A stretch of 64,000 nt of DNA from sequence record PV112478.1; one strand, 5' to 3'. The notes beneath the pieces were generated by a model that saw nothing but the letters and a program-made list of their open reading frames with translations, was not told the origin of the DNA and searched no databases. This DNA comes from Klebsiella phage LPKP23. The number at the start of each line of letters is the position of its first letter. The stretch's first letter is position 1. Position numbers and translations under genes: made by a program. This document shows positions 14,830 to 16,029 of this stretch, piece by piece.

Positions 14830-14866
14830 GGTAGATCACCTTTTTGACGATTAGTTTATTCATAAA

Positions 14867-14893
14867 AACAGCATAAAGAGAGGGTCTTTCGAC
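14867..14893 (-). terminator. Rho-independent terminator closing the minus-strand tRNA/ncRNA transcription unit
   Basis: Hairpin agagagggtc/gaccctctct, followed by a T-rich run in the minus sense. It lies downstream of the ORF-free region and the tRNA array. Confidence 0.5.
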
Positions 14894-14899
14894 CCTCTC

Positions 14900-15578
14900 T
14901 CGTACTGACTTATCGTCAAAAGGATCTCAGTGTTTAGCTCATAAATGACTTATCGCACATCATCCTTTTCATGTTAAGGTCGCCACCGAAACATGTTTAT
15001 TCTCGGCTATACGAGTTAGCTTAATTTCCATATTTTTAATACCCGATCCCTTCTACGTTGGAGAAATGGATCGAATAGGGTGACGCCCCCGGACATTTTT
15101 GCCGGCTCCTTGCACCTCTTTCGCCGGAATCCCCGGCTGAGGTCTATGGTCTATGGCCGCCTATTTTCGCTCTAAGGCGTAGGCCGCCTAAAATGACAGG
15201 CGTCATAATTAGTACCCCTCGGCCGATTCCGCGGCGCGTTTAACCGGCGGGTCGCCGAAGTCTTTGTCTCACGAGAGTTACCAATAAGTTATTGCTTATT
15301 GGACAAATCATTCGGATACGATTCCGAACTCCCTTCCTACCGAGCCTCTACTACCGAGCAGGAGTCGAACCTGCACTCTCTGTAAACAATATCACTTGAC
15401 TAGAGCAGTATTGTAAAGGTTACGTGGACTTTAAAAGTGTAGAATGGGTATCAGTTAATTTGTTGCGGCCGCATACCGGTAACTGACTTCTTCTACTAGC
15501 GCCACCACTGACTCCGGTGTCTCGCCTAGTGGCGTTGTGCGACCCATTAACTCGCACTATCTCTTTTAAGTCCAACTT
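14900..15578 (-). ncRNA. ORF-free, GC-rich, highly structured region downstream of the tRNA array. Candidate non-coding RNA(s) of unknown class.
   Basis: No ORF of 60 aa or more in any frame between 14830 and 15940. Local GC is much higher than in the flanking sequence. Many stable hairpins, including a perfect T-arm-like hairpin at 15348-15367 that has no acceptor partner. Confidence 0.3.
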
Positions 15579-15686
15579 TGGTTGATAGGTACCGAATCGA
15601 ACGGCTATCTCAGGCTCCCATGTTAAGGCGCCCCTCGTATGAGAGGGGGCCTAATGCCCGCGCTTTACCTTTAAGCTAGCCTATCA
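15579..15686 (-). tRNA. Atypical tRNA-like gene (108 nt), with canonical acceptor, D and T arms and encoded CCA, but an expanded (~55 nt) anticodon/variable region
   Basis: Acceptor tgatagg/cctatca gives 7/7 pairs. D arm gctt-aaaggta-aagc carries GG. T arm gccg-ttcgatt-cggt. The central region forms hairpins cgggc/gcccc and cccctc/gagggg instead of a 7-nt anticodon loop. Confidence 0.4.
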
Positions 15687-15939
15687 TTGAATAGGTTCCC
15701 TAGCACTCAATGAGTATCATCTACACCAGCAGCGCCCGGTGTTTAGCCGAGATGCAATTATGCTTAAATGGGTCGTATTTAACGGCTCATTTATTCGTCG
15801 ATGATTTACGTAGGGATAACAAGGAGACATCCCCCTCAGCATGCCGAGGTCAACTTTTGCCTTAGGTCAAGATTAACTCTCCGCAACATTAAGTCGCCTG
15901 GTTAACCCCTACCTTTAGTCTAAGCAAGATGTCATTATT

Positions 15940-16029
15940 TGGCAGAGAGTGAGAGATTCGAACTCTCGGTACCCTTTCGGATACACTCCCTTAGCAGGGG
16001 AGCGACTTAAACCGCTCATCCAACTCTCT
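15940..16029 (-). tRNA. tRNA-Ser(GCU), type II, CCA encoded
   Basis: Acceptor agagagt/actctct. Anticodon loop cuGCUaa. Long variable arm. T loop ttcgaat. Confidence 0.7.

Follow-up and report, generated by a model that had tools for sequence, protein, structure and literature searches.

A gene-free interval behind the tRNA array

The window analysed here, 64,000 nucleotides of Klebsiella phage LPKP23 (PV112478.1), carries on its minus strand an array of tRNA genes ending in tRNA-Ser (16029-15940), and behind this array lies an interval, 14830-15940, which contains no open reading frame of at least 60 amino acids in any frame (the longest is 51 amino acids), as a preliminary description of the sequence had reported. 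The six-frame gap itself extends over 14669-16136 (1468 nt) and is the largest in the window, more than twice as long as the next-largest (604 nt). The preliminary description had considered that the interval might still encode protein by other means. However, all three stop codons (TAA, TAG and TGA) are found in each of its six frames, and as such the reassignment of a single stop codon opens no frame, which rules out hidden coding of this kind. The GC-richness attributed to the interval proved modest, at 0.468 compared with 0.452 for the window on average. Locally the values lie at 0.47-0.51, above the 0.36-0.43 of the downstream genes, but the upstream tRNA array is as GC-rich as the interval. 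A direct repeat, ctaccgagc, is present as described, at 15337-15345 and 15351-15359, and its second copy is not retained in relatives.

The interval is closed by an intrinsic terminator on the minus strand (14901-14866), near the 14867-14893 originally proposed, in which a terminator scan finds an 11-bp stem, GAGAGAGGGUC-GAAA-GACCCUCUCUU (14901-14876), followed by a U-rich tail running to 14866. The stem shows three compensatory pairs among relatives, and in phage FBKp24 a terminator is annotated at the equivalent position. The interval does therefore lie between the minus-strand tRNA array and a terminator, and it is presumably transcribed along with the tRNAs. Going beyond the preliminary description, we find that it is a mosaic of RNA modules, all on the minus strand, which differ in their distribution among relatives: a core is kept in close relatives, but an insert of 159 nt and some 240 nt on the 5' side vary or are missing.

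Lineage-specific modules around the core

Just downstream of tRNA-Ser(GCU) is a spacer element (15825-15699) containing a hairpin, CAUCU..ACACC-GGGCGCUGCU-GGUGU..AGAUG. The element has nhmmer matches in Shewanella phage SXP01 (E 2.3e-8) and in Erwinia phage pEa_SNUABM_10 (E 1.6e-15), and in each of these phages it is located inside a tRNA array, upstream of tRNA-Ser. It is diverged in FBKp24 and missing from Centimanus. It is followed by a tRNA-like gene (15686-15579) whose minimum free energy (MFE) fold is a cloverleaf with one expanded arm: it has a 7-bp acceptor stem (UGAUAGG/CCUAUCA), a D-arm and a T-arm (GCCG-UUCGAUU-CGGU), and the sequence provides a discriminator A and an encoded CCA. 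In this fold a 54-nt structured element replaces the anticodon arm, and a 5-bp anticodon stem with a 7-nt loop is not found. The gene is not called by ARAGORN at default settings and has no match to the Rfam tRNA model (RF00005) at E ≤ 10. Its counterpart in phage MJ359 is annotated as 'tRNA-OTHER', it is kept at 90-97% in Centimanus, FBKp24 and L007, and all homologs found belong to the Klebsiella phage group.

Next is the 159-nt insert (15578-15420), a self-contained three-way-junction hairpin module closed by GGACUUAAAAG/CUUUUAAAGUCC, which is present in the window, MJ359 and L007 and precisely missing from Centimanus and FBKp24. Its predicted fold is very stable (-51.4 kcal/mol, z = -4.4, with 0 of 200 shuffles as stable), and no homologs were found elsewhere. 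On the other side of the core is a structured, lineage-specific 3' domain (15210-14905), for which RNAalifold on five Klebsiella-group sequences gives compensatory changes in three hairpins (alignment A1, columns 285-308, 433-456 and 458-522). It is possibly closed by pairing of GUACU (15215-15211) with AGUAC just ahead of the terminator. The 3' domain is conserved at 97-100% in Centimanus and L007 and at 56-97%, depending on the block, in FBKp24, and again a search beyond the Klebsiella phage group gave no homolog. Three of the modules, namely the 3' domain, the insert of 159 nt and the tRNA-like gene, are limited to one phage group.

A conserved core RNA

Between the insert and the 3' domain lies the core (15381-15211, minus strand), identified as a match to covariance model R1 (163.6 bits, E 5e-40, model positions 1-173); the window copy is in the training set of this model, and it also aligns to the copies of SXP01, Pseudomonas phage OBP and others without it. 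The core is preceded by a hairpin, P0 (ACAAUA...UAUUGU, 15414-15386). Every family member has a hairpin in this position, with sequences that are unrelated between members, and within the Klebsiella group P0 shows no informative variation. Block 15150-15275 is nearly invariant within the Klebsiella phage group (96-100% identity), above the roughly 79-86% of neighbouring coding DNA.

The core begins with a T-arm-like hairpin (hairpin 1), the gcagg-ttcgact-cctgc of the preliminary description, which does exist on the minus strand, at 15374-15358 rather than at 15348-15367. A long-range helix, Px, pairs 15352-15349 with 15262-15259, and between its strands are a mini-hairpin with a GG loop (15344-15337), hairpin 2 (15329-15310), hairpin 3 with an AAUA loop (15302-15281) and a GUAACUC..GAGACAAA strand (15281-15263). 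Beyond Px are the GC hairpin 4 (15258-15244), a GUUAAAC strand (15244-15238), hairpin 5 with a CGGAAU loop (15238-15220) and a 3' tail, GAGGGGU (15220-15214), which pairs with the hairpin-4 loop (15252-15249) in a predicted pseudoknot (A15252-U15214, and CCC15251-15249 with GGG15215-15217). The window copy has all seven helices of the family together with this pseudoknot and a T-loop C-G pair, C15367-G15340.

By sequence comparison the core is a member of a family of RNAs of about 200 nt which recurs in unrelated phages and is undetected by Rfam 15. Alignment A3 holds 29 distinct copies from phage and metagenome collections, the phages being those of Klebsiella, Salmonella, Pseudomonas and Shewanella. 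Across these copies 94.0% of the cells of 38 base pairs are paired, compared with 33-45% when the partners are slid, and in 28 of the 38 pairs both sides have changed in compensation; 0 of 500 shuffles reach the observed covariation values. Covariation in related phages, which had been proposed as a check on the preliminary description, is therefore abundant in the core. There are 46 invariant columns, 32 of them unpaired. G-U outnumbers A-C among the paired cells by 68 to 5, which fixes the RNA strand as the minus strand. Conservation of the core, its compensatory changes and this excess of G-U support the earlier suggestion that the interval encodes one or more non-coding RNAs on the strand of the tRNAs.

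The tertiary pairs were chosen after a scan of all column pairs, and their statistics are as such post hoc: the pseudoknot (columns 142-145 with 179-182) is 93% paired with covariation in all four pairs, and T-loop column 16 with column 47 is CG in 19 copies, AU in 3, GC in 2, GU in 2 and UA in 1. The latter pair switches between C-G and A-U when the window is compared with its close relatives Centimanus, FBKp24 and L007. In tRNA, G19-C56 is an elbow pair, and covariation supports the T-loop C-G pair of the family as its likely equivalent. The T-loop sequence is missing from hairpin 1 in SA002, L032, L043 and D6 and from hairpin 2 in SXP01 and L036; it is not found in every member, and therefore tRNA mimicry may be partial or ancestral. 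A helix P1 between the flanks, closing the whole element, is not general, being clear in L040 and L042 only, and a proposed pairing of the hairpin-5 loop CGGAAU with the 3' side of the T-arm was dropped, as covariation was absent. An exact-pattern scan of 185,579 species genomes, which diverged copies would escape, found no copy, and the family was not found in SPN3US-like phages, whose tRNA arrays have gaps of 450-540 nt, or in pEa_SNUABM_10.

Genomic context of the family

Copies of the RNA are always oriented as the adjacent tRNAs. The L031 copy is 21 nt past tRNA-Leu and 5 nt ahead of tRNA-Ser, those of L035 and OBP are each 6 nt ahead of a tRNA (tRNA-Tyr and tRNA-Asn, respectively), and that of L047 is directly behind a 13-tRNA array. 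In D6 the order is tRNA-Leu, RNA and, 8 nt on, a terminator, and in the window it is tRNA array, RNA and terminator. Such placement, between tRNAs at tRNA-like spacing or between tRNA and terminator, fits co-transcription with the tRNAs. For about half of the copies the flanking DNA examined contains no tRNA. Several have a ribosome-binding site and start codon within 20-60 nt downstream, which a 5' leader would also fit. The genes downstream of the copies comprise tRNAs, a tellurite-resistance-like protein and unrelated hypothetical proteins. No recurrent protein neighbour was found in 27 loci, just one 113-amino-acid ORF recurring, in 5 of the 27, and this argues for a self-standing RNA gene. 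In Centimanus an HNH endonuclease gene is inserted in the tRNA array.

Comparison with known RNAs

The Rfam 15 models gave no meaningful match to the interval, the OBP copy or seven metagenomic copies, either at gathering score or at E ≤ 10; matches at chance level were all that appeared at E ≤ 10, the best being to Pistol (19.5 bits, E 0.82). RNase P RNA, group I and II introns, 6S RNA and known riboswitches and ribozymes were rejected on this basis, and the RNA retains the status of "unknown" that the preliminary description gave it, with tmRNA likewise without a match. Several short likenesses to known RNAs were taken to be coincidental, having support from neither a model match nor topology: the hammerhead core (CUGAUGA, here CUGGUGA), the group I R/S elements, RNase P P4, T-box GGUGGUACCG and sarcin-ricin AGUACGAGAG (14911-14902).

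The likeness to tmRNA, including its permuted two-piece forms, lies in the combination of a T-arm-like hairpin with pseudoknots. Relaxed ARAGORN proposed a permuted tmRNA over 15081-15674 with the tag APRNRPRGTNYDACHFRRPTP. However, default ARAGORN and the Rfam tmRNA models are silent and the tag is implausible, and the call was rejected. With seven calls in 1.7 kb relaxed ARAGORN is not selective, and the intron-containing tRNAs that it called with lowered thresholds and introns allowed were judged unreliable. Unlike tmRNA, the core has no acceptor stem with a free CCA, and its 3' tail is tied up in the pseudoknot. A conserved reading frame, such as a tag, was not found across family members, in which substitutions follow base pairs rather than codons.

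GOLLD and ROOL are structured RNAs of phages and prophages that typically occur near tRNA islands, without an identified protein partner or known function (PMC12286853). The new family shares this location, and the make-up of GOLLD, in which a conserved part is joined to a variable one and tRNAs are sometimes embedded, resembles the Klebsiella-phage locus. In contrast, the conserved unit of the new family, of about 200 nt, is shorter than ROOL (about 580 nt) and GOLLD (more than 800 nt), its hosts are phages of Gammaproteobacteria, and neither the interval nor the OBP copy nor any of the seven metagenomic copies is matched by the GOLLD and ROOL models at E ≤ 10. T4 species 1 and 2 (rnaC and rnaD) are also small stable RNAs at the 3' end of a phage tRNA cluster, co-oriented with it and directly behind its last tRNA, and rnaC has a T-arm-like hairpin; they differ in their sizes (119 and 139 nt) and in being without the conserved strands of the new family. 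Homology with them was rejected, as model R1 scores 3.6 bits on the T4 region with filters off.

YrlA (RF02553), one of the Y RNA-like RNAs of bacteria and phages, is a tRNA mimic in which a T-arm precedes a D-like element, which is able to form an elbow and which is a substrate of tRNA enzymes (PMC4201824). The core has the same order, a T-arm and then the GG-loop mini-hairpin joined by the covarying C-G elbow-type pair, and an elbow is possible; a candidate acceptor-like stem, CUCG/CGAG, is invariant and overlaps Px by one base. It differs from YrlA in being without a Ro60-binding terminal stem and in having a much larger body that is not tRNA-like (the Px junction, three further hairpins and the pseudoknot). 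The YrlA model, with a gathering score of 69 bits, has no match at E ≤ 10 within 14700-16050. The same kind of scan gave a YrlA-like element elsewhere in the window (20328-20455, 37.6 bits, against that gathering score of 69 bits), and 20.33-20.67 kb contains two permuted tRNA-like elements of YrlA type. No TROVE/Ro60 gene was found among the ORFs at 6-27 kb of the window.

A probable tRNA-elbow mimic

The interval may be considered the non-tRNA, 3'-terminal portion of a phage tRNA operon, which would be read from the minus strand jointly with the tRNAs and end at the intrinsic terminator (14901-14866). Its functional heart is probably the RNA of about 200 nt formed by P0 and the core (15414-15211), and we think it probable overall that this is a stable, trans-acting RNA which mimics the tRNA elbow and matures together with the tRNAs. 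In the predicted fold of the family a variable P0 leads to the T-arm-like hairpin, whose T-loop C would pair with a G in the small GG-hairpin loop; the four-base Px closes a junction at which nearly invariant strands connect three hairpins; and a GC-rich hairpin loop would form the pseudoknot with the 3' tail GAGGGG. We infer that host tRNA-processing enzymes cut the RNA out of the tRNA precursor and that, where a tRNA follows, RNase P cleavage at the 5' end of that tRNA sets the 3' end of the RNA. The RNA would then accumulate as a stable species and act in trans, its compact fold offering an elbow like that of tRNA to some factor by which tRNA is normally recognised. The candidates for this factor are the ribosome, an enzyme of processing or modification and a defence nuclease directed at tRNA.

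The core might instead be a cis-acting 5' leader, such as a riboswitch, processive antiterminator or translational control element, governing the DNA downstream. In Holyagarpour, SXP01, L033, L041 and L051 a same-strand ORF with a ribosome-binding site begins 17-60 nt past the 3' tail, and in OBP, L031 and L035 the element is ahead of tRNAs. Many invariant unpaired nucleotides together with a pseudoknot are typical of ligand-binding RNAs, and a hairpin made up of the conserved strands CUCG and CGAGG could compete with Px. However, the downstream genes have no common function, past the tail there is no conserved expression platform, such as an alternative terminator or a ribosome-binding site that is sequestered, and in the window, D6 and L047 the RNA ends a tRNA unit and is followed by a terminator, leaving nothing to regulate in cis; we regard a leader as unlikely. 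Quite unlikely, too, is the view that the RNA is a ribozyme or one of the large, 'ornate' phage RNAs such as GOLLD and ROOL, in which case the fold itself would work by multimer self-assembly or catalysis rather than by tRNA mimicry. The niche is that of GOLLD and ROOL (phages, near tRNA islands, without a partner protein; PMC12286853), and the Klebsiella version reaches about 500 nt with the 3' domain and about 800 nt with the upstream tRNA-like gene, GOLLD being similarly divided into a conserved and a variable half, with tRNAs embedded in some cases. Invariant junction nucleotides are dense and accompany a pseudoknot, and in most members the hairpin-4 loop contains GGCC or AGCU, each of which is self-complementary. 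This loop is, however, already explained by the covarying intramolecular pseudoknot, the conserved unit is merely about 200 nt, no signature of a cleavage site was recognised, and GOLLD, ROOL and ribozyme models are without a match even at E ≤ 10.

That the interval is decaying sequence, made up of dead tRNA genes and spacer left by recombination and homing-endonuclease traffic, is very improbable. Such an origin would agree with its tRNA-derived pieces (hairpins resembling T-arms, and two tRNA-like genes in which the anticodon arm is disrupted), with the variability or loss of the 5' 240 nt and the 159-nt insert in close relatives, and with the HNH endonuclease gene in the Centimanus array, but it could explain at most the variable 15936-15700. 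As a reading of the core it is already contradicted by covariation: the core is shared by phages belonging to different genera, its junctions being invariant and each of its helices showing compensatory changes, and within the Klebsiella group it is more conserved than its protein-coding flanks. We give the least credence to a conserved element acting as DNA, for instance as an origin or homing target or as a site for packaging or recombination. It is true that tRNA arrays are recombination hot spots, that the hairpins could form in single-stranded DNA and that unrelated phages have exchanged the element. However, a DNA cruciform, being symmetric between the two strands, would not give the bias of G-U over A-C, the orientation is always that of the adjacent tRNAs, and covariation in the pseudoknot and in the T-loop tertiary pair is of an RNA type.

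To our knowledge, T4 species 1 and 2, GOLLD and ROOL are enigmatic RNAs of phage tRNA islands, to none of which a function has been assigned. The new family, in which a trans-acting elbow mimic is our preferred reading, provides a tractable entry point, being about 200 nt long, with a secondary structure that is well determined and includes a pseudoknot and a contact resembling the tRNA elbow. If its targets are factors that recognise tRNA, the family would be relevant to the way in which phages shield translation against defences directed at tRNA. More tentatively, the RNA could represent a new functional class, a compact pseudoknotted fold with a built-in tRNA elbow that is a mobile module of phage tRNA islands and acts on the tRNA-recognising machinery of the host, whether by binding the ribosome, by catalysis as a ribozyme, or as a decoy or inhibitor of a processing enzyme or of a defence nuclease directed at tRNA; we hold this to be possible but doubtful. 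Should it be true, then with the two permuted YrlA-like RNAs and the two tRNA-like genes with expanded anticodon arms in the window, jumbo phages would deploy a whole repertoire of tRNA mimics. Whatever the function, a conspicuous blank in Klebsiella jumbo phages that are therapeutic candidates gains an annotation, and among the phages that carry the family are cultivable ones of Klebsiella, Salmonella, Pseudomonas and Shewanella. One of the metagenomic copies, L050, is on a 1.5-Mb contig, beside ccmE and dsbE.

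Organization of the ORF-free interval

The window is part of the ~300-kb genome of a Klebsiella jumbo phage, and the interval 14830-15940 is 99% identical to its counterparts in vB_kp_MJ359 and KpLz-2_45-like phages, 95% to that of Centimanus and 84% to that of FBKp24. The preliminary description had noted that no ORF of 60 aa or more exists in this interval, and this was borne out (the longest is 51 aa); the actual six-frame ORF-free gap extends over 14669-16136 (1468 nt). All three stop codons are scattered across the six frames of the interval, so that recoding could not rescue a gene there. 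The raised GC content is present but modest, at 0.468 for the interval vs 0.452 for the window, and locally 0.47-0.51 vs 0.36-0.43 in downstream genes. The co-oriented tRNA array said to adjoin the interval does so, with 9-10 tRNA genes immediately upstream, and the T-arm-like hairpin exists, although its true site (15374-15358) is ~8 nt from that originally claimed. The second-largest ORF-free gap in the window (18610-19213, 604 nt) lies just upstream of the gene preceding the tRNA operon, and Rfam models had no hit there at E<=5.

Aligned with its counterparts in four distinct relatives (MJ359, Centimanus, FBKp24 and the metagenomic contig L007), the interval proves to be a mosaic of modules on the minus strand. 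A variable stretch (15936-15700), missing from Centimanus and divergent in FBKp24, contains a spacer element of ~125 nt (15825-15699) that Erwinia phage pEa_SNUABM_10 and Shewanella phage SXP01 also have in their tRNA arrays. The core of this element is 89-91% identical among Klebsiella, Erwinia and Shewanella jumbo phages, and in the latter two it lies directly upstream of tRNA-Ser(GCU) (L004 2502-2627, L005 2490-2597); it could represent a further small RNA or serve as a processing signal. There follows a tRNA-like gene (15686-15579) with a predicted cloverleaf of 7-bp acceptor stem, D-arm, T-arm and encoded ACCA, in which a 54-nt structured element replaces the anticodon arm in the fold; its annotation in MJ359 is 'tRNA-OTHER', and both ARAGORN at default settings and the Rfam tRNA model do not recognise it. 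Next are a self-contained and very stable three-way hairpin (15578-15420, z = -4.4), exactly missing from Centimanus and FBKp24, the conserved core (15414-15211), and a structured domain (15210-14905) found only in the Klebsiella phage group, which has three hairpins with compensatory changes. The block 15150-15275 is 92-98% identical within this group vs 79-86% for flanking protein-coding DNA. The suspected minus-strand terminator is real, with an 11-bp stem (14901-14876) and U-rich tail directly after the structured domain. At its base, AGUACGAGAG (14902-14911, minus strand) equals the opening ten bases of the sarcin-ricin loop motif of 23S rRNA; the bases beyond them differ, and the sequence itself belongs to the terminator stem, so that the match is probably a coincidence.

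A new RNA family in phages

The conserved core belongs to a new RNA family of a known kind, that of tRNA-island-associated phage RNAs and tRNA mimics. An nhmmer match to SXP01 had the conserved strands in identical order, with intervening hairpins unlike in sequence, and further copies were gathered using SXP01 as a bridge together with two degenerate DNA patterns. These came from Pseudomonas phages OBP, D6, Holyagarpour and Ebordelon, Salmonella phage SA002, and IMG/VR and metagenome contigs; two pattern matches inside coding sequence (L022/L023, L039/L054) were dropped. The final alignment, A3, holds 29 distinct sequences, each of which scores 140-191 bits with R1, the covariance model built from it. 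The window copy (15211-15381) scores 163.6 bits, and R1 found no match in the remainder of the window, in related SPN3US-like tRNA arrays or in the T4 tRNA region. Only ~8 lineages among 50,697 deposited phage genomes have the RNA, which is annotated in none of its carriers there, and 185,579 species-representative genomes scanned for an exact pattern yielded no copy. One metagenomic copy (L050, 931-1104) is on an AT-rich 1.54-Mb contig, Ga0247725_1000001, beside ccmE and a dsbE/ccmG-like gene, so that bacterial genomes or prophages may carry the family as well.

The Rfam scan suggested in the preliminary description was run with Rfam 15, and at the gathering score and E<=10 there was no match to the interval, the OBP copy or seven metagenomic copies. 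The family is new by comparison with this curated library. The models without a match include those of tmRNA, RNase P RNA, group I/II introns, 6S RNA, GOLLD, ROOL, YrlA, riboswitches and ribozymes, and we assign the core to none of these known families. A permuted tmRNA was called by ARAGORN only at a threshold giving seven calls in 1.7 kb, with an implausible tag peptide. GOLLD and ROOL share the niche of phage RNAs of unknown function near tRNA islands, but are unlike this family in sequence, structure and size. T4 rnaC and rnaD likewise lie at the end of a tRNA cluster, but are not homologous to the family. Non-coding RNAs receive only brief mention in a 2026 review of jumbo phages.

Structure and covariation

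The consensus begins at its 5' end with a variable hairpin, P0, and T-arm-like hairpin 1 (often GGCGG-UUCGAUU-CCGCC), followed by CUCGnU, the 5' strand of a four-base long-range helix (Px), GAGG and a 2-bp mini-hairpin with a UGGU-type loop. Beyond this are GAAGGGAG, hairpin 2, frequently with a T-loop, UGAUAUGUC, and hairpin 3, whose AAUA loop is closed by a C-A or U-G pair; then GUAACUC(nnnn)GAGACAAAU, followed by the 3' strand of Px. Hairpin 4, which is GC-rich, comes next, and after it GUUAAAC, hairpin 5, whose loop is CGGAAU, and the tail GAGGGG.

The comparisons establish this structure, and likewise the strand of the RNA, selection on it and its placement. In A3, 94.0% of cells at the 38 nested pairs are standard-paired vs 33-45% in controls whose 3' partners are shifted by 1-3 columns, and the covariation score is 0.64 vs 0.06-0.11 in the same controls; none of 500 shuffles reached the observed values. 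Covariation in relatives, another check proposed at the outset, is extensive, with 28 of the 38 pairs changed on both sides. Paired cells include 68 G-U vs 5 A-C, an excess from which the RNA can be assigned to the tRNA strand. There are 46 invariant columns, 32 of them unpaired, and so many conserved unpaired positions suggest that the RNA has a compact tertiary fold and is not just hairpins in a row.

Three further contacts were chosen post hoc from a scan of all column pairs, one being the mini-hairpin stem. Another is a pseudoknot between the hairpin-4 loop and the 3' tail, with four contiguous pairs, 93% paired and all four covarying; GCCC/GGGC is exchanged for CUA/UAG in D6 and L031, and for ACAC/GUGU in L035. 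The last is between hairpin 1, at the third base of its T-loop, and the mini-hairpin loop, at its second G (CG 19, AU 3, GC 2, GU 2, UA 1), and is C-G in the window vs A-U in the near relatives Centimanus, FBKp24 and L007, a double change. This contact would have the geometry of the G19-C56 pair of the tRNA elbow, and its U-G neighbour occupies the place of G18-Psi55.

Genomic context and possible function

The RNA is placed among or beside tRNAs in several loci: 21 nt 3' of tRNA-Leu and 5 nt 5' of tRNA-Ser in L031, 6 nt 5' of tRNA-Tyr in L035, 6 nt 5' of tRNA-Asn in OBP, directly 3' of a 13-tRNA array in L047, and 3' of tRNA-Leu in D6, with a terminator hairpin 8 nt downstream. In the window the order is tRNA array, family RNA, lineage-specific domain and terminator. 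Copies near tRNAs are co-oriented with them without exception, and there the RNA behaves like one more unit of the array. The phage tRNA array is a rearrangement hot spot; that of Centimanus lacks tRNA-Ser and tRNA-Asp, and is interrupted between tRNA-Leu and tRNA-Met by an inserted HNH endonuclease gene (L002 4956-5417). In SA002, L032 and L026, tRNA-like sequences with D-arm and T-arm motifs, uncalled by ARAGORN, lie 3' of the RNA (L028 ~2668-2740; L032 downstream of 4420; L026 downstream of 8315), which suggests a recurrent association with non-canonical tRNA-like genes.

No recurrent protein family was found beside the RNA except a 113-aa ORF at 5 of 27 loci, which in the window (16755-17096, minus strand) is embedded in the tRNA array and has homologs close to the RNA in FBKp24, SXP01, L026 and L035. 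It matches only PHROGs of unknown function, with no Pfam or PDB match, and no RNA-related partner emerged when the window's ORFs at 6-27 kb were scanned with Pfam and PHROG.

The best-supported reading, which we think reasonably probable, is that the core is the gene of a stable RNA, carried by phage tRNA islands as one of their modules and acting in trans as a tRNA-elbow mimic. Such an RNA would be transcribed together with the tRNAs, freed by the tRNA-processing machinery, and folded into a compact pseudoknotted body displaying a tRNA-like elbow; its target in trans would be a tRNA-recognising factor. For roughly one copy in two the fetched DNA contains no tRNA, and some of these copies have an ORF with a ribosome-binding site downstream; because of these ORF-proximal copies we retain some weight for a cis-acting leader, unlikely as it is. 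That the core is an ornate RNA or a ribozyme seems slightly less likely again. Decay of the interval is very improbable, and action of a conserved element at the DNA level marginally more so, both being contradicted for the core by the covariation and G-U bias. The family itself is well supported and experimentally approachable.

Other tRNA-like elements

Two permuted tRNA-like elements of YrlA type and two tRNA-like genes with expanded anticodon arms in the same window hint that this phage has a wider range of tRNA mimics. A Y RNA-like element (20328-20455, minus strand) scores 37.6 bits with Rfam YrlA (E 1e-6; gathering score 69), matching in its tRNA-like part (T-arm, acceptor-like stem-loop and D-arm) but not in the Ro60-binding stem, and folds as a permuted cloverleaf (z = -4.2). 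The ARAGORN 'tRNA-Stop (tta)' at 20413-20496 overlaps this element and is probably a misreading of it. No TROVE/Ro60 gene adjoins it, its neighbours being a DUF7873 protein and an ORF without a family match. The second permuted element (~20565-20663, minus strand), detected by no Rfam model, is closed by GAUGAC (5') and GUCAUC (3'), between which are a T-arm (GGAAG-UUCGACU-CUUUC), the acceptor 3' strand UUCUCCC with ACCA, a short loop, the acceptor 5' strand GGGAGAA and a D-arm. The tRNA gene at 16206-16302 (minus strand; Rfam 38.9 bits, encoded CCA) has a ~25-nt insertion with its own hairpin in the anticodon loop; missed by default ARAGORN and annotated 'tRNA-OTHER' in MJ359, it is kept in relatives.
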